Source: Escherichia phage vB_EcoM_ASO1B. From it: a stretch of 64,000 bases of DNA. Made by a program: the position numbers and the translations under genes. This document shows positions 3,482 through 60,960 of this stretch, piece by piece. The stretch lies in sequence record MZ726792.1; one strand, 5' to 3'. Within the stretch, counting starts at the first letter, position 1, and every line of letters begins with the position of its first letter. The notes below the pieces were generated by a model that had not been told where the DNA came from, searched no databases, and was given only the letters and a program-made list of their open reading frames with translations.

Positions 3482-3498
3482 TAAGTAATTTCTTAAAA

Positions 3499-3521
3499 GG
3501 CTGCTTCGGCGGCCTTTTTTT
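3499..3521 (+). terminator. rho-independent terminator after rIIB
   Basis: GGCTGC-TTCG-GCGGCC hairpin followed by T7 run. Confidence 0.7.
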
Positions 3522-3582
3522 ATTTGTATTTTGTGCAGAGTGCTGTATAATTGTTGTCACGATAAACTAAACAGGAGAACCA

Positions 3583-6832: not shown

Positions 6833-7618
6833 ATGGGTATTGTAAAAATCATCAATGGTGATATCTTTGCTGCATTTGATAAAGGTAAGTTTGACATCAT
6901 TGGTCATGGTTGTAACTGCATGAACCTAATGGGCGCAGGTATCGCTGACAAGATTTCTAAACTTTACCCAAAAGCATATGAGACCGATACAGAAGTTTAT
7001 CTCTATGCAGGTGGTATAGGTCACAAACCCTGTGAGAATTTACTAGGTAATTTCTCTGTAGCACGCTTAAAACAAGGTCGTATAGCTAACCTTTACACTC
7101 AGCTTAAGACTGGTAAAGATGCCCGATACAGTGCTTTAGAGTCATCTTTGAAGCAACTTAACAGATACTGTGAAGTTAATCAGTTGAAGAAAGTTGGTTT
7201 ACCTATGATTGGTGCAGGTATCGGTGAACTTGACCCTCAAGCCGTCACAGTTATCATCAATCAGGTGATGAAGAGTGTAGATGTTTATCTATATGTCTAT
7301 GAAGGAGAGATGTACCACAAGTTACTCTCAGGTTGGAAGAACTACTGTGAACCAGAATACTTTGCAGGTGTAGCAGTGTTCACAGATAACGCAGTTACCC
7401 TCTTCAGACGAAGAAAAGGTAAGATACATCAAAGTAACCCTCCGGTTGAAAAGATGTCTCTAAGTAACGCTCTAGTTACCCACCTGTCAAAGAGCAATCA
7501 CAGAATTGCTGTAACATTTGGTAGTGATGCAGAAGCTTATATCTATGCAAGAACTGATGAGGATATTGAGGCAATCTTCTCTTCACCAGAAGTTACCTTC
7601 TTAGACGCAAAGAACTAA
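6833..7618 (+). CDS. macro-domain protein (putative ADP-ribose processing enzyme)
   Basis: 261 aa; N-terminal GDIF...DIIGHGCNCMNLMGAGIA and later GLPMIGAGIGELDP resemble macro-domain glycine-rich boxes. Confidence 0.55.
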   Translation: MGIVKIINGDIFAAFDKGKFDIIGHGCNCMNLMGAGIADKISKLYPKAYETDTEVYLYAGGIGHKPCENLLGNFSVARLKQGRIANLYTQLKTGKDARYSALESSLKQLNRYCEVNQLKKVGLPMIGAGIGELDPQAVTVIINQVMKSVDVYLYVYEGEMYHKLLSGWKNYCEPEYFAGVAVFTDNAVTLFRRRKGKIHQSNPPVEKMSLSNALVTHLSKSNHRIAVTFGSDAEAYIYARTDEDIEAIFSSPEVTFLDAKN

Positions 7619-7686
7619 GAAACTCTGTAGGATATTCACAATAGCCTAAGCCTTTCTTATCTGGTAAATTTTTCAGGTAAGGAGGG

Positions 7687-7873
7687 CTTTTTCATTTCAG
7701 ATTTGTGCAGGTAGAGTTCTGTAGAGAAATCTATAGAGAAAATTTTGAACTCCAAAGAGAAAATTCATTTTCAAACTGTGCAGGTAATCTCCAAAGAGCT
7801 TTTTCATTTTCAAAACGTGCAGACCCCGCTCAGGTCGGGCAAGAAAAATCATTTTAGAATTGTGCAGGTAGGT
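7687..7873. repeat. four direct repeats of ~25 bp (TTTCATTTyCArAwyTGTGCAGGTA)
   Basis: copies near 7687, 7765, 7798, 7848 in a non-coding stretch. Confidence 0.7.
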
Positions 7874-7885
7874 TTTTATAGACAG

Positions 7886-7927
7886 CCAGCCCAACCCCTC
7901 TCCCCCTCTTACTCCCCCTCTCCCAAA
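7886..7927. repeat. C-rich tract (G-rich on minus strand, G-quadruplex-capable)
   Basis: CCAGCCCAACCCCTCTCCCCCTCTTACTCCCCCTCTCCC in an AT-rich genome. Confidence 0.6.
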
Positions 7928-8046
7928 AAGTCAAGAGAAAAATTTGTAGCGGATTGAAAAATAATTCTTGATTTGCGTTCTGTTTTGTGGTAGTCGTGCG
8001 CACCCGTTTCATTACAGTTTTGCCAAAAATATTTTTAAAATTTTTA

Positions 8047-8138
8047 TTGACTCTTTGAACGTGGTTATCTAATATTTACATCAACGGGGAGGGAATGACC
8101 TTCCCCACTAAATAAAATCCTAAACTGGAGATTCAAAA
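8047..8138 (+). promoter_or_regulatory. PeSL-like cassette: sigma70-like promoter (TTGACT-17-TAATAT) + 5' leader hairpin + SD
   Basis: -35 8047-8052, -10 8070-8075; hairpin GGGGAGGG-AATGA-CCTTCCCC 8086-8106; SD GGAG before ATG 8139. Confidence 0.65.
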
Positions 8139-8327
8139 ATGGCATCAAGAAAAATTAAAGTTGGCGATGAGGTTAACATTAAGCACGAATACTCTTACAA
8201 AATGCTAACTATACGCTCTTATAAGGTTTATCAGGTGGAAGCTATCCACAAAGATAATACTTTTTCCTTAAAAGGGTATAGCGAACGTTTCCCTGCTGAA
8301 CTCTTTGAGAAATGGAGCGCGAAATAA
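8139..8327 (+). CDS. hypothetical small protein
   Basis: 62-aa ORF immediately after PeSL-like cassette. Confidence 0.5.
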   Translation: MASRKIKVGDEVNIKHEYSYKMLTIRSYKVYQVEAIHKDNTFSLKGYSERFPAELFEKWSAK

Positions 8328-8533
8328 TGCTTTACAGTCGTGAATTGATGGTTACAACTAACGTTAACACAAAGGTAAAACGTTTTTACATGCAAATTTG
8401 TGGCGTATGGTCTAGAATATCAGAAGCTGACTATTGCAACTATGTAGAAACAGCTATAAACTCTAATTGCTACCTTACAAGAAATACTAAGAATTTTACA
8501 AGGCAAACAGCGATTTACTATTACGATAAATAA
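8312..8533 (+). CDS. hypothetical small protein
   Basis: 73-aa ORF overlapping previous stop; alternative start at internal Met possible. Confidence 0.4.
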   Translation: MEREIMLYSRELMVTTNVNTKVKRFYMQICGVWSRISEADYCNYVETAINSNCYLTRNTKNFTRQTAIYYYDK

Positions 8534-8620
8534 AAGTACTTTACAAGGGGCTTATAGTTCGATAAAGTAAGCCTCAGATAAAGAGCTTTACCACTCAATC
8601 CTAAATTGGAGAACTTAAAA
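8531..8620 (+). promoter_or_regulatory. type-II intergenic cassette (CTTTACA + conserved hairpin + AGATAAAGAGCTTTAC + SD)
   Basis: hairpin GGGGCTTA...TAAGCCTC 8547-8575; one of six related copies. Confidence 0.6.
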
Positions 8621-8914
8621 ATGGCTATTATCAAAAACGTTGTAATTACTGCAAAGACTCGTGATGACGCTCGCGTTATGGCTAAAAAGTTATGCGGGAA
8701 AGTGGTTGACAATGGAAAACAATCTGCTGTAAGGTGGGGCGTGAAGGTTGATAAACAGTTGAAGTTAAAAAATTCACCGATAAACCTTTTTACATGTGTA
8801 AACACTATCGGGAAGACAAATGTATACACGAAAAAGGCATACATTAGACGCGTAGCATTAACATCCCCCATTCGTACAATGAGAAGTTATGCAAAGCTGA
8901 AAATTAACAAATAA
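8621..8914 (+). CDS. hypothetical protein
   Basis: ORF-track start 8606 is TTG; ATG at 8621 has SD TGGAG. Confidence 0.5.
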   Translation: MAIIKNVVITAKTRDDARVMAKKLCGKVVDNGKQSAVRWGVKVDKQLKLKNSPINLFTCVNTIGKTNVYTKKAYIRRVALTSPIRTMRSYAKLKINK

Positions 8915-8999
8915 AGTACTTTACAGGGGGCTTAAAAGCTGATACCTTAAGCCCCAGATAAAGAGCTTTACCACTAAATCCTAAACTGGAGATTCAAAA
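8913..8999 (+). promoter_or_regulatory. type-II intergenic cassette
   Basis: hairpin GGGGGCTTAA...TTAAGCCCC 8926-8955 with covarying stem; SD before ATG 9000. Confidence 0.6.
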
Positions 9000-9512
9000 A
9001 TGAAAACTGTAGACGCTACCTTTGAAGTTGTAAAAGAAAAATTCACTATTATTTATGAAGCTGTCAATTGCTTTGAAGCAAGCCATAATCTTGATAATTG
9101 GGAATTTACAGATGACCATCAAGGCGGTGTGACGATTAAAAATCCTAACTGTCAGCGTAATGAATTTAAATATGCAATCCCTTTACATTACAGCCTTAAA
9201 CAGCTTTCAAGTGACTATGCAAAACAAGGCCGGGCAAATCCATCAAAAGAGGCTTACATCAGCTTACAGAAAGAACTAGAAAGAGATTTAGAGGCTTCAG
9301 AATATAACATTGCCGCGAAAGTTGTAGATGCAAATGGCAGCACTGTTTTAGAAAGTTTTTATATTGGTTACGCTTTCGATTGGTGCTACAGTGACGGCGA
9401 TGATTTAGAGGATAGACTAAAAGAAGAGGTGAACAACGCAGACGCAGAATCTGAAGTATTAGAACGTTTGGAATCGTTGAAAGACTCAGTGATGAATATC
9501 TTTAAGAACTAA
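9000..9512 (+). CDS. hypothetical protein
   Basis: 170-aa ORF after type-II cassette. Confidence 0.55.
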   Translation: MKTVDATFEVVKEKFTIIYEAVNCFEASHNLDNWEFTDDHQGGVTIKNPNCQRNEFKYAIPLHYSLKQLSSDYAKQGRANPSKEAYISLQKELERDLEASEYNIAAKVVDANGSTVLESFYIGYAFDWCYSDGDDLEDRLKEEVNNADAESEVLERLESLKDSVMNIFKN

Positions 9513-9604
9513 ATAGATTCCTTTACACGGGGTTATCAAGCTGGTAGGATAGCCCCAGATAAAGAGATTTATCAAATAAAGCCCTTAAACTAGGAGATTC
9601 TAAA
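9513..9604 (+). promoter_or_regulatory. type-II intergenic cassette (divergent copy)
   Basis: hairpin GGGGTTATC...GATAGCCCC 9529-9556; SD AGGAG. Confidence 0.5.
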
Positions 9605-9901
9605 ATGAAATTATCAAATAAAGTTAGGGAAAACCTTAGTAAATTACTCAATAAAATTGATTTTATCGAGACATCAAGAAATAGTCATGATGTTATGGAA
9701 TGGTTACATGGCAAAATAAAAGGCCGTCGTGTAGTAATTTGCTTATGGAATAGTTGCAGGGAGTATAAAAAACCTGTATTGCAAGTTAATATATACGATG
9801 ATACTTTTAAAAGTCCTGTAAAGTCTAAAAGCGATTTATTAGAATCTTATGAGATATCTGTAAGTGGCAAAGTATCACGTAAAGAGGAAACACCATGTTA
9901 A
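9605..9901 (+). CDS. hypothetical protein
   Basis: 98-aa ORF. Confidence 0.5.
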   Translation: MKLSNKVRENLSKLLNKIDFIETSRNSHDVMEWLHGKIKGRRVVICLWNSCREYKKPVLQVNIYDDTFKSPVKSKSDLLESYEISVSGKVSRKEETPC

Positions 9902-10227
9902 TGACTGGTATCACTGCAATCATTGCCATTTTCGCTCTATATAAGGCATATAAAGCCTATAATCTAGCAAATAAGGCAACCACCCAGCAGGTTAGCAATA
10001 GCCTTGTAGAAAGCTTTCTAGGGCGTTTAAGTGATGAGCAAATAAAGCGGCTAGAGATGAGCTTCAGATATAAAGCGAAAACCTATCAGATAAGTGACAT
10101 CTTCAAAGATAATTTTCAGTTAGTTGATGATTATAATTCTCTGATAAATGCTTTAAATGTCAGTGACTTAAAAGACTACTACGTTGTAATTGTTCAAGAA
10201 TTGAGCAAACGAAAACAAAACTGTTGA
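9895..10227 (+). CDS. hypothetical small membrane protein
   Basis: 110 aa; hydrophobic N-terminus ITAIIAIFALY; start overlaps previous stop. Confidence 0.5.
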   Translation: MLMTGITAIIAIFALYKAYKAYNLANKATTQQVSNSLVESFLGRLSDEQIKRLEMSFRYKAKTYQISDIFKDNFQLVDDYNSLINALNVSDLKDYYVVIVQELSKRKQNC

Positions 10228-10316
10228 CACTGGTTTTTAGATAGATTAAATTACACATCAACGGGGAGGGAATGACCTTCCCCACTAAATAAAGTCCTAA
10301 ACTGGAGATTCTGAAA
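10224..10316 (+). promoter_or_regulatory. PeSL-like cassette (TTGACA-17-TAAATT + hairpin + SD)
   Basis: -35 10224-10229, -10 10247-10252, hairpin 10263-10283. Confidence 0.65.
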
Positions 10317-10475
10317 ATGTTTTGTGCAGGTGATAAAGTTGTCTGGAATGATATAGATGACGGTTTATGTACGAAAGTTGTTGTTATCCTAGAAATTGAT
10401 TATATCACTGGTGTTGCAACTGTAGCAGATAATGATATAATCTTTGATGTCTTAATTAGTGAACTGTCAAAATAA
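10317..10475 (+). CDS. hypothetical small protein (52 aa, absent from >=60-aa ORF track)
   Basis: ATG 7 nt after SD of PeSL cassette; in-frame stop TAA at 10473. Confidence 0.4.
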   Translation: MFCAGDKVVWNDIDDGLCTKVVVILEIDYITGVATVADNDIIFDVLISELSK

Positions 10476-10500
10476 AACCCTTAAACTAGGAGCTTTTAAA

Positions 10501-10773
10501 ATGTACACTACTAACAATGGTCGCACCTTAAATGTCACCTTGCGTCACTATGTAGACGGTGTGATGTGCTTTGAAGATTTACGGGCTGAGCAACACATCT
10601 TAAATTGGCAAGTTGCAGGACTCCAAAAAACTGCTACAGGATACGGGAAAAAGATTCCAACCAGTTGGAAAGTATACTACGAAGGACGTTTACGCAGAAT
10701 TTATCAAGATGTGCAAAGAAATAGCGCATCGAGTTACATTATAGTAAAAGGCAAAAAACTGCATTTAATGTAA
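10501..10773 (+). CDS. hypothetical protein
   Basis: ORF-track start 10459 is GTG; ATG 10501 has SD AGGAG. Confidence 0.5.
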   Translation: MYTTNNGRTLNVTLRHYVDGVMCFEDLRAEQHILNWQVAGLQKTATGYGKKIPTSWKVYYEGRLRRIYQDVQRNSASSYIIVKGKKLHLM

Positions 10774-10859
10774 AGTACTTTACAAGGGGCTTATAGTTCG
10801 ATAAAGTAAGCCCCAGATAAAGAGCTTTACTACTCAATCCTAAATTGGAGAACTTAAAA
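10774..10859 (+). promoter_or_regulatory. type-II intergenic cassette
   Basis: hairpin 10786-10814, near-identical to copy at 8547. Confidence 0.6.
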
Positions 10860-11264
10860 ATGGCTATTAATAACCGTGAATTATCAATTTTAAAAGCACG
10901 TTTGACCGTTAACCGGATTAATGTTATCACGTCATCAGCACCAGATGAAACACTGCAAAACATTATTGGGAAGATTCAAAGTGTTATCTTAGACGTTGAA
11001 AGCGTAAAAAACTCATTGACTGACGTTGCAGCAGGTATCACGCTAGACGGTGCACAACATGAAATGGCCGACATGTTAGGCAAATCTAAGGTAATGAATA
11101 AAGAGTTAGATTTGAAAATGTTCCGATTTGCTGTTAAAGTGTGGTTATCTGTCGAGTATGATGCTAACTTTGCAATCGCTGACTTTTTCGCCACTTGGTT
11201 GCAGCGTAATTTGGCAAATCACGATTTCCGTAATATCTGCGATGCAATTTATGCAGAACTATAA
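10860..11264 (+). CDS. hypothetical protein
   Basis: ORF-track start 10845 is TTG; ATG 10860 with SD. Confidence 0.5.
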   Translation: MAINNRELSILKARLTVNRINVITSSAPDETLQNIIGKIQSVILDVESVKNSLTDVAAGITLDGAQHEMADMLGKSKVMNKELDLKMFRFAVKVWLSVEYDANFAIADFFATWLQRNLANHDFRNICDAIYAEL

Positions 11265-11274
11265 AAAATTTTTG

Positions 11275-11367
11275 TTGACACTGGTTTTTAGATAGATTAA
11301 ATTACACATCAACGGGGAGGGAATGACCTTCCCCACTAAATAAAGTCCTAAACTGGAGATTCTGAAA
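11275..11367 (+). promoter_or_regulatory. PeSL-like cassette
   Basis: -35 TTGACA 11275-11280, -10 TAAATT 11298-11303, hairpin 11314-11334; near-identical to 10224 copy. Confidence 0.65.
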
Positions 11368-11571
11368 ATGGCTATTATTAATGGTTTAACCATTGAAACT
11401 ACACACATCAAAGATATCAAAGTTGGTGATATAGTCCTTTCCCACGGCGTAGAAAAAACTGTCACTGCAAAGGATATCAAAGAGGATTCTTTCATGGGTA
11501 GGACTCTCTTCGGTGATTCTTATTGCTTAGGCTATCTTGCAGTTTTAAAAGTTGTCAAAAATAACAAATAA
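11368..11571 (+). CDS. hypothetical small protein
   Basis: 67-aa ORF after PeSL cassette. Confidence 0.5.
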   Translation: MAIINGLTIETTHIKDIKVGDIVLSHGVEKTVTAKDIKEDSFMGRTLFGDSYCLGYLAVLKVVKNNK

Positions 11572-11657
11572 AGTACTTTACAAGGGGCTTAAAAGTTGAT
11601 AACTTAAGCCTCAGATAAAGAGCTTTACTACTAAATCCTAAACTGGAGATTCTAAAA
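11571..11657 (+). promoter_or_regulatory. type-II intergenic cassette
   Basis: hairpin GGGGCTTAA...TTAAGCCTC 11584-11612. Confidence 0.6.
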
Positions 11658-11906
11658 ATGATGAACTACTTTAACATTCCCGATACCTGTAGATTATTGA
11701 CACAAGAAGAAAATTTGGGTAAACCTTTCATTTACCACATGCCAGATAACACGGCAAAAACTTATAGTTACAATGTTAACCGTTTCACCGCATACGCTGC
11801 AAAGAACGGCTATAGGTTGGTTACTCAAAAAGTAATGCTGGTTACAACTGCTGGCGAGATTCCTACAGTTGCAGTCAAACTAGTTTTCTCAAAGAAAGTT
11901 AAATAA
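11658..11906 (+). CDS. hypothetical protein
   Basis: 82-aa ORF. Confidence 0.5.
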   Translation: MMNYFNIPDTCRLLTQEENLGKPFIYHMPDNTAKTYSYNVNRFTAYAAKNGYRLVTQKVMLVTTAGEIPTVAVKLVFSKKVK

Positions 11907-11991
11907 AGCACTTTACAAGGGGCTTATAGTTCGATAAAGTAAGCCCCAGATAAAGAGCTTTACTACTCAATCCTAAACTGGAGATTCAAAA
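11907..11991 (+). promoter_or_regulatory. type-II intergenic cassette
   Basis: hairpin 11929-11947 region; SD before ATG 11992. Confidence 0.6.
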
Positions 11992-12534
11992 ATGAAATGT
12001 TATCACGGAACTACTCAAGAAAATTTCCTCAACCTGATTAATAACGGTGATAAACCATCAGGCGCATGGAATTGTTCGGATATGGACGGCAATTTTTACG
12101 TGTATCCAGAAAATAAAATCTATGGCGACGATGATGAAGAGATAACATCGGAGGGCATTCAGCAAGCTCTAGGGAACGCCACTATTACGGCGGCCTTCCA
12201 GATGAAAACCCAAAATATTGTTATCTTAGAACTCGATATTCCAGATGATGAGCTAAATGATGATTATTCTTGTGATAATATGTCGAGTGTAGCAAGTTTT
12301 ACAGAGTACTTTGATGTAAACTGGATTAAAAAGGTCTATACAACAGAGTTTAACGCTATGTATTCGCCTTTTTGTCTTCCTTCACTGGATAACCCAAATA
12401 TGAACTATCTTGATGAGACATTAGAACTACTTGCTAAAAGTGTTCAACAGTCGGACAGTATTCAGGTTTTTTGTGACATCATAGATACACTGACAGGAAA
12501 CATTGCAGAAGAGGATTTAAAGAGCTTTTTCTAA
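11992..12534 (+). CDS. hypothetical acidic protein
   Basis: 180-aa ORF. Confidence 0.55.
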   Translation: MKCYHGTTQENFLNLINNGDKPSGAWNCSDMDGNFYVYPENKIYGDDDEEITSEGIQQALGNATITAAFQMKTQNIVILELDIPDDELNDDYSCDNMSSVASFTEYFDVNWIKKVYTTEFNAMYSPFCLPSLDNPNMNYLDETLELLAKSVQQSDSIQVFCDIIDTLTGNIAEEDLKSFF

Positions 12535-12565
12535 AAACCTATGCAATCACCTTATAAACACTAAT

Positions 12566-12590
12566 CAGCCCCCTTGTAGGGGCTTTTAGA
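12566..12590 (+). terminator. putative intrinsic terminator
   Basis: AGCCCCC-TTGTA-GGGGCT hairpin then TTT. Confidence 0.45.
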
Positions 12591-12601
12591 GGGCTTAAAT
12601 C

Positions 12602-12835
12602 ATGCTTACAACCGTTTATCTCATCCTCTCAATTTGTAATGGCCATTCATGTGACTTTAAAGGGCTTGAAGAGTTTACAGGAAGTAAAGAAAATGCTATT
12701 CAAGTTTGCCAGATAGCAAGGCAAGACTATCCCGCCAGTGATGATATACAATGTTACTTTAAGACAGAAGATGACGACGGAATTTATTTCGACAGTGTTG
12801 ACGGTCAATATGAAATTATCATTGAAAAAGACTAG
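12602..12835 (+). CDS. hypothetical small protein
   Basis: 77-aa ORF. Confidence 0.45.
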   Translation: MLTTVYLILSICNGHSCDFKGLEEFTGSKENAIQVCQIARQDYPASDDIQCYFKTEDDDGIYFDSVDGQYEIIIEKD

Positions 12836-12927
12836 ACAAGCCTGATAAAAGTCTGTAAATTGTCAATCAACGGGGAGGGAATGACCTTCCCCACTAAGTA
12901 AAGTCCTTAAACTAGGAGATTCTAAAA
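12833..12927 (+). promoter_or_regulatory. PeSL-like cassette (-10 TAAATT + hairpin + SD)
   Basis: -10 12856-12861; hairpin 12872-12892; SD AGGAG. Confidence 0.55.
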
Positions 12928-13269
12928 ATGGCTTATGTAACCATAATTACCGATAAAGCTGGCGCATCTTGGTCAACTCAGGTTAGTGATAAGATGTCAC
13001 CTATGCAGTGCCTAAAATACTTTGAACAGTGGAACAAAGGCGAGGACACAAGCCCCTTTCAAGTGATGCAGATTATCCATGTAGACAACGAAGGGAATAA
13101 AACGACCTTGAACAGTGAATACTACGCAAGCCGTTTTGAAACGAGAAGTAAAACAATGAAGCTTTTACGTGAATCCGGTTATGCCCATATCGCCGCGTTA
13201 ATCTGGGATGACCTGCTAAAAAGTCAGCGTATTAGCTATGTAAAGCCTGAAAAAATATTCATCAGTTAA
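12928..13269 (+). CDS. hypothetical protein
   Basis: 113-aa ORF. Confidence 0.55.
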   Translation: MAYVTIITDKAGASWSTQVSDKMSPMQCLKYFEQWNKGEDTSPFQVMQIIHVDNEGNKTTLNSEYYASRFETRSKTMKLLRESGYAHIAALIWDDLLKSQRISYVKPEKIFIS

Positions 13270-13301
13270 TCAATAACTTACAAAAAACTTTTAAAAAAGT
13301 G

Positions 13302-13330
13302 TTGACAATACCCCTTGACATTGGTAACTT
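13302..13330 (+). promoter_or_regulatory. sigma70-like promoter (TTGACA-17-TAACTT), tandem TTGACA boxes
   Basis: TTGACA at 13302 and 13316. Confidence 0.4.
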
Positions 13331-13421
13331 TGTTCGAGGGGGTTTATCTAAAAGGGATTCACTTAAAAGATTCTTTATAGATAAGCTCAAAAAATTACTT
13401 GCAATCAACTATCAAAACAAG

Positions 13422-13489
13422 TAAATTACTAATCAACGGGAAGGCAATAACCTCCCCACTAAATAAAGTCCTAAACTGGAGATTCTAAA
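13422..13489 (+). promoter_or_regulatory. PeSL-like cassette with covarying hairpin
   Basis: -10 TAAATT 13422-13427; hairpin GGGAAGG-CAATAA-CCTCCCC 13438-13457. Confidence 0.55.
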
Positions 13490-14020
13490 ATGAACAAATT
13501 TCAAGCTATCAACTTCATTCGTTCAAATACTGTAATGTCTAAGCCTGTAAAAGATACATACGAATTCCGTTGTAATGGGGTACATTTCGCAACAATCACC
13601 AAATCAGAAAACGGGACTTATTACGTTCATCGTCGTAATGTTTACACTGTTGTAGTCTCTCACTTTATGCAAGCTGTAGCGGAATTATTACCGTTATTCT
13701 TAGAGATTTACTTAGATGAGTGTAAAAACGTTCACAACCACGTTAAAAACCTTTTAAACGGTTATAAAATGGCTTATGAACGTTCTATCAAGTCCTTAAA
13801 CAAGTTCTATAAAGCCCCTGAAAACTCTGTTGCTTCAGCCTATGGCGTAGGCGGTTGGACTGTTAGTCTCTTCGAAGTGGAAGAAATCGAGCTTTACGAC
13901 CATCGACCTAACGGTTACTCTAAGACTCTCGGTGAAGGTTTAACGTTCAATATCAAGAACTTAGAAAAAACTTTAAAAGATATTGAAAAAGATATTGACG
14001 AGACAATAAAAAGTCTGTAA
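13490..14020 (+). CDS. hypothetical protein
   Basis: 176-aa ORF. Confidence 0.55.
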   Translation: MNKFQAINFIRSNTVMSKPVKDTYEFRCNGVHFATITKSENGTYYVHRRNVYTVVVSHFMQAVAELLPLFLEIYLDECKNVHNHVKNLLNGYKMAYERSIKSLNKFYKAPENSVASAYGVGGWTVSLFEVEEIELYDHRPNGYSKTLGEGLTFNIKNLEKTLKDIEKDIDETIKSL

Positions 14021-14086
14021 ATTGTCAATCAACGGGGAGGGAATGACCTTCCCCACTAAATAAAGTCCTAAACTGGAGTTATCAAG
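13995..14086 (+). promoter_or_regulatory. PeSL-like cassette (TTGACG-17-TAAATT + hairpin)
   Basis: -35 13995-14000, -10 14018-14023, hairpin 14034-14054; promoter lies in 3' end of upstream gene. Confidence 0.55.
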
Positions 14087-14350
14087 ATGGAAAACGTAGA
14101 ATTAACCACACTTTTACAAATTGCAACTGACAAAGAAGATGTAGCACTGTTTCACCGTATCGAAAGCGATTTATTCAATGGTGAAATCATCAAAGAATCT
14201 TATGAAGTTGTCGGATTCAAAGATGGTAAAGCGTTTGGCTTTTTTGACCTCGACAAAGGCAACGCTGTCACAAAGTATGATGTTGTATCTTGTGAGATTC
14301 TTACAAAATACAACGAAAAAAGGCTTGCAACATACGCCAATATACAGTAA
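14087..14350 (+). CDS. hypothetical protein
   Basis: 87-aa ORF. Confidence 0.5.
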   Translation: MENVELTTLLQIATDKEDVALFHRIESDLFNGEIIKESYEVVGFKDGKAFGFFDLDKGNAVTKYDVVSCEILTKYNEKRLATYANIQ

Positions 14351-14416
14351 ATTACTAATCAACGGGAGGCGATAACCTCCCCACTAAATAAAACCCTTAA
14401 ACTAGGAGATTCAAAA
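14348..14416 (+). promoter_or_regulatory. PeSL-like cassette with covarying hairpin
   Basis: -10 TAAATT 14348-14353; hairpin GGGAGG-CGATAA-CCTCCC 14364-14381. Confidence 0.55.
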
Positions 14417-14665
14417 ATGGCAACTATCCGCGCTACTGTCAATGCCTATGGCTGTTATACTCTGGACGTTAAATTTGATATTGGTGGAACTGATGAGTGT
14501 TTTTCATTAGTGAAGACAGTTATCAAACAAGTTATTCCAGATTATAACCCTACTGATGACTTCTGGAAAGATGCTGTAAAAGAGGCATTAAACGACGAGC
14601 ATCACTATCATTACTGGGGTGACTTGATTGTTTCCCTGTACTACAATAAACAAGGTTACAACTAA
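14417..14665 (+). CDS. hypothetical protein
   Basis: 82-aa ORF, last gene of rightward array. Confidence 0.5.
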   Translation: MATIRATVNAYGCYTLDVKFDIGGTDECFSLVKTVIKQVIPDYNPTDDFWKDAVKEALNDEHHYHYWGDLIVSLYYNKQGYN

Positions 14666-14704
14666 TCGACGCAACGGGGCTAAATAGCCCCAGATACCTC
14701 AACA

Positions 14705-14728
14705 GCCCCTATTTAAAGGGGCTTTTTT
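14705..14728 (+). terminator. rho-independent terminator ending rightward early array
   Basis: GCCCCT-ATTTAA-AGGGGC hairpin plus T6; second hairpin GGGGCT-AAAT-AGCCCC at 14676-14691. Confidence 0.65.
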
Positions 14729-14739
14729 ACGTCTATTGA

Positions 14740-16265
14740 ATCCTTATACAATCCCTTTCCAGAATCTTATCAGACCTTAAAAGCAATAACTCTATAGTCT
14801 ACTCTATAACCTCTTATCAAATCAACTTAAATAAAAGCCAATAACCCCCAGAAAGGGGATGGCCCATTTAAACGCTCTATAAAGCTCTATAACAGCCTTA
14901 TCAACCTAACTTAAGGGATTGCATTAACCAACCTTAAAAAGCTCTTTACAGGGCTTTATAGAGACTTAAAAGAATCTTATAAGGGTGTAAGCTTTATCAT
15001 CTCGTTAGTATCTTGTGAATAACTAAAAAGGGCTTGTTAGTGTCTTAAAAGTATGTTATAGGGGCTTAAAAGTTACTTCAAAGTTACGTAAAAGGGGCTA
15101 TAAAGTTACGTAAATGCTAGCCCCCTTAACATTTTCTTAACAATTTCTTAACAATCCCTACATAGTTATGCTTTTAAGGCACTTGTTAGCAACTTGTTAG
15201 CCCCTTGTTAAATCTCTGTTAAGACCACGTAAAAGCCTTGTAAGAACCTTTGACATAGCCTTAAAAGCCCCTGTAAAGCCCTATAAAGAGGTATCTGTAC
15301 AGTTGGGGGGTAAATACTAGGAAGAGATTTAAAAGAGGCTATAAAGAGCTATAGAGGGCTTTTAAGAGGTATGTTTAAGGAATCACTAAGAAAGGAAAGG
15401 GAACGATAAGAAAAGAGTAGTGACCTTGTTAATAGCTTGTTAAAAAGATTAAACACTTGTTAGAGACTTGTTAATTATCTTAACAAAATAACTCTTAAAA
15501 ATTAACTTGTTAGCTATTGTTAGTCATCTGTTAAGATTCTGTAAAGTCCATGTATCAACTGTTAAGAAACTGTTAAGCCCTTGTTAGTTCTTTTAAGAAT
15601 CTGTTAAGACCTATGAAGAGTTGTTAAGAAGGTGTTAGAACTGTTAAGAGATTGTTAAGGATATTTTAAAATTTTGCAAAGTACTTGTAAGGGAGCTGTT
15701 AAGGGCTACCAAGCAGATATACATCCTATTCAGATATTTTTGAGTTCCTTCAAAGACCCTAAAAAATGACTTGATAACCCTATTTTATAAAAATTTTAAA
15801 ATTCTGAATAATTACCTATACAGTCTTCTAAAAATACAGGCATAAACAGGCTTATAAGATACCTTGTTAGTACCGTGTTAGACCTTGTGAGATAAGGCCT
15901 GTAAAGATATTCCTGTTAAGTTTGTTAAAACAGTCTATATAGAGGCTTAGTAATACCTAGTGAACACCTATAGAGGGTATCATAGCTTACCTAGAGATTA
16001 AGAGGTGTATAGGAGCTTCTAAGAGGGTGTAGAGAGATGGTTAAGGTGATTGTATAGGCTGTTAAGAAGGCTTGTTAGAAGAGTGTTTAGAAGGCTTGTT
16101 AGAAGGGCTATACAGAGGGCTATTAAGACCACTAGATAGTTACTAAGATACTATATAGTACTATATAACTATATATAGAGAGTAAGATTAAGAAGGTTGT
16201 TAAGAAGGGTAGATATTTTGTTCACATATGATGGTGACCCAGAGGTTGGGACAACCGATAAAATT
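14740..16265. repeat. ORF-free repeat-dense zone (iteron-like yTGTTArG arrays, direct repeats, TATA-rich micro-repeats)
   Basis: no ORF >=60 aa on either strand; >20 copies of CTTGTTAG/CTGTTAAG-like motif within 15130-15680 and 16060-16110; 15-bp direct repeat AAGGCTTGTTAGAAG x2; ACTATATA x3 near 16150. Confidence 0.7.
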
Positions 16266-16275
16266 TTATAAAAAT

Positions 16276-59229: not shown

Positions 59230-59470
59230 AGCTTATTTGGCAGATTTTTTATAAGGCTACTGCCATCCTTCCATACATCACCTTACCTTACCTCACCTGA
59301 CCTGACCTGACCCTACCTAACATTACCGTGCCACACCTCACTTAAAAACCCTCTTAAAAGACTCTTAAGTGATGTAATCGAATTTTAATGTAGCTCCGAT
59401 TAACTACCCATACCTTACTCCGCCTCACCTTACCTAACCGTACCGTACCATACCTGACATAACCGTGCCT
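59230..59470. repeat. pentamer-repeat tract (minus strand AGGTN x ~10) plus ~45-bp blocks shared with 60660-60960
   Basis: CACCTTACCTTACCTCACCTGACCTGACCTGACCCTACCT on plus strand. Confidence 0.65.
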
Positions 59471-59502
59471 TACCTTATTAAAAGACCCTCTTTAAAGACC
59501 TT

Positions 59503-59527
59503 TTAAAAAGGAGCCTCCGAAGAGGCT
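59503..59527 (-). terminator. intrinsic terminator downstream of 59539-59979
   Basis: minus-strand AGCCTC-TTCG-GAGGCT hairpin followed by T-run. Confidence 0.55.
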
Positions 59528-59538
59528 ACCTAGTCAAC

Positions 59539-59979
59539 TTAGAAAGGTTTTCTGCGTTGCTTGTTAATATTAGCTTTCATAGCAGCTAAGTGATTTTGCT
59601 GTTCAATCAGTCGTGAACGTTCTTGATGACTAAGTGCCATAGTGTTCACATTCTCAATCGCTTGAGTGGCTTGCTTTAAAGCACGACCAATCTTACCAGA
59701 CATTTTGCGTTTTGCAATAGTTGCTTGATGCTTAGGTTCAACCACACGATAACCAACACCCATTGAAGCAACCAGATAAATCTTCTCTTCTTTAAGAAGT
59801 TTTTCAATAAACTTTTCAAGTCGGTTTAGACGTGTAAGCGCATAAGCCTTCATTTCATCTTCGTACTTAACAATGTCACCTTGATAAGTTGGCTTCACAA
59901 TACCTAAGAAGGTGTCCATCTCAGAATGTGATACAGTGTCACCGTAACTAAACTTTGCTGCTAATGCTTTTGTATTCAT
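59539..59979 (-). CDS. hypothetical protein
   Basis: 146-aa ORF. Confidence 0.5.
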   Translation of the reverse strand: MNTKALAAKFSYGDTVSHSEMDTFLGIVKPTYQGDIVKYEDEMKAYALTRLNRLEKFIEKLLKEEKIYLVASMGVGYRVVEPKHQATIAKRKMSGKIGRALKQATQAIENVNTMALSHQERSRLIEQQNHLAAMKANINKQRRKPF

Positions 59980-59981
59980 AA

Positions 59982-60587
<606 letters not shown>

Positions 60588-60659
60588 TTAGTTGATTGTT
60601 AAGTTGTTTGTAAAGAACCCTCAACAGAAGACTCTTTAGAAACTTGGTAGATTTTTAAC

Positions 60660-60960
60660 GTGGCTACTACCATCCACCCATACCTCACCTCACTTAACCT
60701 CACCCTACCACACCAGACATCACCTTACCATACAGCACCTTATTAAAAGACCCTCTTAAAGACCTTTTAAAAAGGTAAGTCTCATTTTAATGTAGCTGAG
60801 ACTAACTACCCGCACTTTACCGCACCGGACCTTACCGGACCGCACATCACCGCACTAAACCAGACATCACATTACCTGACCACACCAAACCAAACATCAC
60901 ATTACTTAAAAACCCTCTTAGAAGACTCTTAAGTGATGTTGGTGAGTACCCGTTGGTTTA
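60660..60960. repeat. second copy of composite intergenic repeat (ACC-rich short repeats, shared 33- and 45-bp blocks)
   Basis: shares ACTTAAAAACCCTCTTAGAAGACTCTTAAGTGATG and TTATTAAAAGACCCTCTTAAAGACCTTTTAAAAAGG with 59340-59520. Confidence 0.65.

Follow-up and report, generated by a model that had tools for sequence, protein, structure and literature searches.

A repeated intergenic cassette of Felix O1-like phages that probably combines an early promoter with an RNA hairpin

Escherichia phage vB_EcoM_ASO1B carries an array of small early genes whose gaps are filled by two families of repeated cassettes. We analysed a 64,000-nucleotide stretch of its genome (record MZ726792.1; the window) and focus here on the six-copy hairpin/promoter family, F2; the companion ("PeSL-like") family in the same array is called F1. 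Each F2 copy, a portable element of about 90 bases, is probably a composite cassette of the promoter-early stem-loop (PeSL) type, that is, an early promoter interleaved with an RNA hairpin, which additionally provides homology for gene shuffling. The stem covaries, so the folded strand is under selection, and the conservation pattern says the same of the promoter. From the sequence we also infer promoter activity, the start site and a role of the hairpin in RNA.

At the DNA level, the cassette would act as a host sigma-70 early promoter of the T4-early type. Its parts would follow in this order: an A/T-rich stretch with the stop codon of the upstream gene, a -35 box (C)TTTACA, a spacer of 17-18 nt often ending in TGn, a -10 box TAnnnT, a C-rich segment at -4 to -1, a start at the A of CAGA, and a 5' untranslated region (UTR) of about 45 nt with a GGAG Shine-Dalgarno (SD) sequence. 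In transcripts arriving from upstream promoters, the same 60 nt would form a hairpin of about 21 bp with interruptions, in which the -35/UP half is paired to the half at +4 to +17 and a G4/C4-clamped upper stem brackets the spacer and the -10 box. This hairpin would most likely attenuate read-through and/or serve as an RNase III-type cleavage site with 3'-end protection, and each small gene would thereby become an autonomous expression unit. Because the cassette is repeated, it supplies homology at the points where relatives delete, insert, duplicate and reorder genes.

Occurrence and placement of the F2 cassettes

All six copies named in the original prediction are present on the + strand, with CTTTACA starting at 8539, 8919, 9521, 10778, 11576 and 11911. 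The repeat finder and the alignment concur on this number, and a covariance model finds exactly six copies in the window, all within 8.5-12 kb; the remaining 23.6 kb of the 87.6-kb phage genome gives no match. Matches of this model on the minus strand are only a palindromic echo, at least 50 bits lower. The 17-mer CAGATAAAGAGCTTTAC of the 3' block has eight matches at up to 3 mismatches against 0.37 expected, a number exceeded in 0 of 100 shuffles; two of the eight are related 5' blocks AAATAAAGTACTTTAC within the same cassettes. The shared block AAGTACTTTACA is exact in only four of the six copies, since the copy at 11907 has AAGCAC and that at 9513 has GATTCC.

The copies sit downstream of rIIA/rIIB, and each spans a whole gap, from the stop codon of the upstream small gene to the start codon of the next gene. 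Their parts are as follows.

8531-8623, + strand: cassette 1; stop codon TAA 8531-8533; hairpin 8531-8591; -35 box TTTACA 8540-8545; -10 box TAAAGT 8563-8568; predicted +1 A 8576; SD GGAG 8608-8611; ATG 8621
8912-9002, + strand: cassette 2; stop codon TAA 8912-8914; hairpin 8911-8971; -35 box 8920-8925; TGa and -10 box TACCTT 8943-8948; predicted +1 A 8956; ATG 9000
9510-9607, + strand: cassette 3, the covarying variant; stop codon TAA 9510-9512; hairpin 9513-9572 with upper stem GGGGTTATC/GATAGCCCC and outer stem AUAGAUU/GAUUUAU; -35 box 9522-9527; TGg and -10 box TAGGAT 9545-9550; predicted +1 A 9557; ATG 9605
10771-10862, + strand: cassette 4; stop codon TAA 10771-10773; hairpin 10770-10830 with upper stem 10786-10794/10806-10814 and lower arms 10770-10782/10818-10830; -35 box 10779-10784; -10 box TAAAGT 10802-10807; predicted +1 A 10815; SD 10847-10850; ATG 10860
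11569-11663, + strand: cassette 5; stop codon TAA 11569-11571; hairpin 11568-11628; -35 box 11577-11582; TGa and -10 box TAACTT 11600-11605; predicted +1 A 11613; ATG 11658/11661
11904-11994, + strand: cassette 6; stop codon TAA 11904-11906; hairpin 11903-11963; -35 box 11912-11917; -10 box TAAAGT 11935-11940; predicted +1 A 11948; ATG 11992

The GenBank annotation used for comparison is that of MZ726791.1 (Escherichia phage vB_EcoM_ASO1A; Ounavirinae, Felixounavirus), which has the same coordinates and is 100% identical over window positions 8000-13500. It places promoter and "terminator" pairs at F1 and nothing at the six F2 copies.

For the comparison with relatives, the covariance model was seeded from five window copies; the copy at 9513 was omitted, as MAFFT had put its 1-nt gap wrongly. 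Loci of relatives were anchored on the neighbouring macro-domain gene, which gave 29 IMG/VR loci, and the model matched 126 + strand copies in the window plus 23 of these loci. With 8 further copies from two Erwinia Kolesnikvirus phages, the full sample comprises 134 copies (101 distinct) from 26 Ounavirinae sources. Pairing and shuffle statistics were computed on 94 distinct Felix-type sequences, and RNA folding was done on 65 nt around each copy. A loose IMG/VR pattern, CTTTACA-N28-40-AGATAAAGAG, gave mostly chance matches; it served for the first variants only and was replaced by the anchored loci and the covariance model.

The placement seen in the window holds throughout the sample. All 134 copies are in gene orientation. 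CTTTACA lies 7-14 nt past the end of an upstream open reading frame (ORF) of 35 or more codons in 133 of them, and for 55 of these 133 that ORF stops at the TAA within the outer stem. The distance from the C of CTTTACA to the next start codon is 72-88 nt, mostly 78-85 nt. Relatives have 1-10 F2 copies per locus (some loci are partial), all in the same array, and two distant loci (40% protein identity) lack the cassette. In a BLAST search, F2 was found at 1349 places in 287 phage records, which come from Ounavirinae of Escherichia, Salmonella, Shigella, Citrobacter and Erwinia.

Promoter and hairpin within the same 60 nucleotides

The evidence for the promoter lies in what is conserved among the 101 distinct copies. 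TTTACA is invariant, and TAnnnT is present in 100 copies after a spacer of 17 nt (91 copies) or 18 nt (9 copies). T-12, A-11 and T-7 are essentially invariant (100/101) while positions -10 to -8 vary, carrying 0.2-0.5 bits, and this is the hierarchy expected of -10 recognition by sigma-70. G-14 is found in 88%. Moreover, the 10 distinct copies whose hexamer matches TATAAT at three of six positions all have TGn, compared with 47 of the 90 others (p = 0.004). C-1 and A+1 are invariant and lie 4-7 bases past the -10 box; if the A of CAGA is +1, the 5' UTR would be about 45 nt long and include the GGAG sequence. T4-type early promoters have a -35 box GTTTAC, conserved A-11 and T-7, and C at -3 to -1 (PMC1524935), which the F2 promoter features match.

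Promoter and hairpin use the same bases. TTTACA consists of the 5' arm of the middle stem and two loop bases, TA of the -10 box lies in the apical loop, and the final T opens the 3' arm. GGGG begins 2 nt past the -35 box, and CCCC ends at -1. Within the apical loop, TA is invariant when 1-nt indels are allowed and carries 1.85 bits; the other loop positions carry 0.2-1.4 bits, with 0.2-0.7 bits at those next to the TA.

A diverged relative of the 5' half of the cassette lies in the gap between rIIA and rIIB. This element is a promoter in the GenBank annotation and shares the 5' module, with a canonical TTGACA. Weak model matches occur at the same place in relatives.

2290-2327, + strand: rIIA-rIIB element TAAAGTGTTTGACAAGGGGCTTCAAAGCCCC; -35 box TTGACA 2298-2303; hairpin 2305-2320, all in the spacer; -10 box TAGAAT 2322-2327

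The predicted fold is the same three-tier hairpin of about 60 nt in all six copies, with folding energies of -17.7 to -24.9 kcal/mol (z = -3.6 to -5.6). An outer stem (A)UAAAGU/GCUUUA(C) is followed by a 1x1 mismatch and the middle stem CUUUA/UAAAG, above which come a 3x3 internal loop CAN/AGA, a 9-bp upper stem and an apical loop of 10-11 nt. The original prediction had described a stem of 8-9 bp, and both its common form, GGGGCTTA/TAAGCCCC, and the covarying copy at 9513 are as described; however, the flanks AUAAAGU.CUUUA/UAAAG.GCUUUAC also pair, so that the hairpin reaches about 21 bp in segments of 9 + 5 + 6-7 bp.

Compensatory changes across relatives bear out the claim that this stem covaries. 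Among the cells of the 21 pairs, 94.9% are standard. Shuffles give 88.5%, with 0 of 500 as high as the real alignment, and sliding the partners by 1-3 columns gives 38-54%. The covariation score is 0.186, compared with 0.075 for shuffles. The upper stem is 99.1% paired, with two-sided changes at four of its nine pairs. For example, pair 24/43 is UA in 74 sequences and AU in 20 with zero mismatches, and pair 26/41 uses AU, UA, CG and UG. In the outer stem, pair 6/61 switches from GC to UA (Fisher p = 3e-11), and the Erwinia copies replace GGGG/CCCC by GGUG/CACC. The internal-loop bases CA/AGA are invariant. G.U occupies 165 cells and A.C 55, of which 50 are in a doubtful terminal pair; frequent G.U together with few A.C outside that pair fits the sense strand as the folded one. 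Several upper-stem variants coexist in one genome, and there are chimeric cassettes in which the 5' and 3' arms are mismatched. Rfam searches, permissive for 7500-15000 and at gathering thresholds for the whole window, passed only tRNAs; a mir-980 match on the opposite strand was spurious (26.9 bits against a gathering score of 47).

These observations would also suit a purely RNA element, namely an intercistronic RNase III-type processing or stabilising site in a long early polycistronic RNA, whose likeness to -35 and -10 boxes is a by-product of structural constraints. The early RNase III signals of T7, such as R1.1, are intercistronic hairpins of about 60 nt in the early polycistronic mRNA of a phage with an enterobacterial host; they are built from lower and upper stems around an internal loop and hold no promoter. 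RNase III sites span roughly two helical turns of largely double-stranded RNA, and the cut often falls in an internal loop. The predicted F2 hairpin is of similar size and architecture, though it differs from the R1.1 type in its putative promoter and its large apical loop. The long interrupted hairpin predicted in all copies, the covariation of the upper and outer stems and the invariant CA/AGA all favour such an element, as does the terminator scan: it finds no canonical terminator between 7704 and 14704, so read-through RNA must include the hairpins. Nevertheless, we think it unlikely that RNA function is the whole explanation. It leaves unaccounted for the invariant TA in a variable loop at exactly 17-18 nt from TTTACA, the G-14 preference, the TGn compensation and the canonical promoter with the same 5' module. 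Nor does it explain why orthologous genes have F2 in some phages and F1, a plain promoter cassette, in others, or why some relatives have 7-10 consecutive F2 cassettes with no F1 detectable by a simple pattern.

A second alternative, which seems to us decidedly improbable, is that the arms are DNA operators. In this reading, the 12-bp palindrome TAAAGnnCTTTA, present over the -35 box and again at +4 to +15, would be the binding site of a dimeric regulator, encoded by the phage or its host, that turns the early promoters off. Both arms are indeed palindromic and nearly invariant across four genera, and the palindromes flank the promoter core at a fixed spacing of 47 bp. However, arm changes such as the 6/61 switch break each TAAAGnnCTTTA palindrome while keeping arm-to-arm pairing, G.U pairs are common, and upper-stem variants are mixed within single genomes.

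Several points weigh against the composite promoter-hairpin cassette itself. The -10 hexamers match TATAAT at just 3-5 of 6 positions, and in DNA so rich in A and T a simple promoter scan lacks specificity (31 sites versus 21.7 expected). CTTTA and T-7 are also needed for pairing, and because of this double constraint some of the "promoter" conservation could be structural. The 101 distinct copies share descent, so that all counts exceed the number of independent events. On the RNA side, sense and antisense folds differ by a mean of only 0.9 kcal/mol, an asymmetry so small that the strand was chosen from the direction of transcription and the G.U counts. Since F1 has a short hairpin, an RNase III role cannot be common to F1 and F2, and no U-tract lies 3' of the F2 hairpin, which leaves attenuation as a proposal. 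The literature yielded neither mapped transcript ends (5' or 3') nor reporter or RNA-seq data for any Felix O1-like phage, and the timing of expression in Felix O1 is mixed. According to reverse transcription PCR in the Felix O1 genome paper, ORFs 16 and 20, directly downstream of its two 57-bp repeats, peak at 5 min, which gives the promoter weak backing, and ORF 19, behind an F1 promoter, peaks at 25 min.

An extension of the composite reading, which we offer as a speculation of low probability, is a self-insulating unit in which promoter-born and read-through RNAs converge on a near-identical 5' end. RNA from the embedded promoter would begin with the A of CAGA, the read-through hairpin would be cut in the invariant AGA side of the internal loop by host RNase III or by a nuclease of the phage, and the upstream message would retain a protective 3' hairpin. 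If this were true, any ORF between two cassettes would be expressed independently of its context.

Gene shuffling and comparison with known systems

The original prediction had also raised the possibility of a recombination breakpoint, and comparative genomics places cassettes and gene-content breakpoints together. In a BLAST comparison of window positions 7600-15000 with 24 relatives, 177 of the 217 internal ends of homology blocks (82%) fall in cassettes: 79 in F2, 78 in F1 and 20 in bare SD modules. Together, these three classes take up roughly 19% of the region (binomial p between about 1e-24 and 1e-29), although the enrichment is partly inherent, since an alignment will run on through any repeat that is conserved. 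Blocks run from the 5' edge of a cassette to an ATG, and the pattern still shows exchange of whole genes exactly between cassettes. For example, relative L136 lacks gene 014 and has one cassette in place, and in L126 modules 020 and 021 are swapped in order. In a Citrobacter phage Michonne-like contig (L143, 6960-7560), a tandem duplication of cassette and gene has the junction ATG|CTTTACA, which looks like the footprint of a cassette-to-cassette exchange. In five groups of orthologues, the cassette upstream is F1 or F2 depending on the phage.

It is very improbable that the cassette is solely a recombination element without a role in expression, whether a selfish repeat of palindromic form or a folded site, resembling attC, on which a site-specific recombinase acts. 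The clustering of breakpoints, the chimeric cassettes and the tandem duplication would suit such an element, and so would the integron analogy drawn by the authors of the PeSL papers, who also detected mini-circles (PMC2839356). Like integron attC sites, F2 cassettes are imperfect palindromes, conserved more in structure than in sequence, that separate small gene cassettes gained and lost. On the other hand, they bring their own predicted promoter and SD sequence, all copies follow gene orientation and run exactly from a stop codon to SD and ATG, and breakpoints are as frequent at the unrelated F1, as plain homologous exchange predicts; the exchange looks like ordinary homologous recombination. 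Neither an integrase nor any other recombinase is annotated in the genome stretches read. A GTTRRRY-type core, as in attC R and L sites, was not evident on reading the F2 arms, for which no pattern search was made.

PeSL cassettes are known from the T4-type phages RB49/phi1, T4/PST and KVP40/nt-1, where they are defined by an upstream stop codon in an A/T-rich stretch, a sigma-70-like promoter, a 3' SD sequence with ATG, and the shuffling of ORFans (Arbiol et al. 2010, PMC2839356; Comeau et al. 2014, PMC4122927). [quoted passage not shown] Every PeSL feature that can be read from sequence recurs in F2: the upstream stop in an A/T-rich stretch, sigma-70-like -35 and -10 boxes, a 3' SD with ATG, and a stem-loop of a G-tract and a C-tract, with G-T pairs, between or over the boxes. 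Many copies occur among small ORFan arrays, and junctions of indels, replacements and duplications lie at the cassettes. F2 is best filed as a PeSL-type element in a different phage subfamily, of a kind already known from T4-like phages; its sense-strand hairpin is unusually long and well supported. The original prediction set F2 apart from a "PeSL-like" family; this distinction does not hold, because F2, with its -35/-10 pair and interleaved hairpin, is itself of the PeSL type.

There are also differences. F2 belongs to the Ounavirinae, and it has no resemblance to PeSL cassettes beyond generic promoter features, as judged without aligning any PeSL sequence. Two sharply conserved families, F1 and F2, stand in place of a loose motif, and the F2 hairpin grows to about 21 bp through pairing between the -35/UP region and the sequence that is transcribed first. 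The Felix O1 genome paper (2010) listed a 57-bp direct repeat without interpretation and stated that the temporal control of transcription was unknown. We found no paper that links PeSL with Felix O1, and the papers on VpaE1, wV8 and UAB_Phi87 do not discuss the repeat.

If F2 is of the PeSL type, it would offer a testable early-promoter map for phages widely used in Salmonella and E. coli typing and biocontrol, and promoter-plus-stem-loop gene shuffling would extend beyond T4-like phages. The more than 1300 copies would then be a well-sampled natural case in which the demands of a promoter and of an RNA hairpin act on a single sequence. The analysis also points to probable promoters, and to at least one probable gene, that public records leave unannotated.

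That F2 is an intrinsic (rho-independent) terminator is the least probable of the alternatives and can be given hardly any weight: a G/C-clamped hairpin does follow right after the stop codon, and PeSL stem-loops reduced expression of downstream lacZ in RB49/phi1 assays (PMC2839356), but AGAUAAAGAG comes directly after the stem in place of a U-tract, and neither the terminator scan (0 of 6) nor the tools of the GenBank annotators called one at the six cassettes, in line with the earlier statement that ruled out a classical terminator. Promoter-coupled terminators (Fletcher et al. 2026 bioRxiv, 10.64898/2026.08.19.745784) are alike in that one DNA provides an upstream hairpin and a downstream promoter between tandem genes. 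There, hairpin DNA gives the -35 box and a T-tract lies just upstream of the -10 box, whereas F2 has no T-tract and its hairpin covers the spacer, the -10 box and the discriminator. A layout resembling that of promoter-coupled terminators is found after rIIB at 3497-3551, where a GenBank terminator (3497-3532) overlaps a promoter (3524-3551).

The companion family and neighbouring features

F1 has the same SD module as F2, a promoter TTGACA-N17-TAAATT and a hairpin GGGGAGG..CCTTCCCC, lies in the same array and behaves in the same way at breakpoints. The two families do not strictly alternate, as had been stated, but are interspersed in the order F1, F2, F2, F2, F1, F2, F1, F2, F2, F1, F1, F1, F1. 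The terminator features in the GenBank record of phage XTG1, judged by positions only, are probably F1 hairpins and not F2. Behind the last gene of the array, a relic of the F2 upper stem precedes the true terminator at 14704.

8045-14419, + strand: span of F1, with copies at 8045-8141, 10222-10319, 11273-11370, 12831-12930, 13396-13492, 13993-14089 and 14346-14419
14676-14696, + strand: F2 upper-stem relic and AGATA, GGGGCTAAATAGCCCCAGATA, without -35 and -10 boxes

An ORF of 68-73 codons at 8312/8327-8533, absent from the annotation of MZ726791, is probably a missed gene. It overlaps gene 012 at that gene's stop codon, in a TAATG arrangement, and its own end coincides exactly with the stop codon of cassette 1. 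The DNA of this ORF is conserved in 104 phage records, at least one of which annotates coding sequences over it (two, each a "hypothetical protein").

Upstream of the array, ASO1A_011 (6833-7618) encodes a conserved "hypothetical" protein of 261 amino acids with a Macro domain (E = 4.5e-7, above the Pfam cut-off). Between a strong terminator (7648-7704) and the first promoter cassette, positions 7690-7935 contain TCATTT..GTGCAGGTA four times and then a C-rich tract (7886-7935).

All six window cassettes have a GGAG-type SD sequence (one as AGGAG), and T4 RegB cuts at GGAG. A RegB-like endoribonuclease is annotated in the same early region of Erwinia phage Panisse (L153, 2047-2559). In five early window ORFs, Pfam found no RegB-like domain, only a sub-threshold SLT domain (18.9 bits versus 21.3) and the macro domain.

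Downstream of the array, a gene-free stretch of 1.5 kb between convergent terminators (14734-16270) contains 27 + strand copies of YTGTTAR, compared with 63 in the whole 64 kb. They are often 10-11 nt apart, for example at 15183/15194/15205/15216 and 15559/15570/15581, and the stretch also holds repeated CTATAAAG/CTTAAAAG words. It looks like an iteron-type array for protein binding and is possibly a replication origin. Finally, positions 59279-60939 hold four copies of a repeat of about 97 nt made up of ACCTN-like pentamers, each ending in a AAAAGACCCTCTTAAA-type sequence; the closer end of the gene for DNA polymerase (62169-64889) is about 1.2 kb away.

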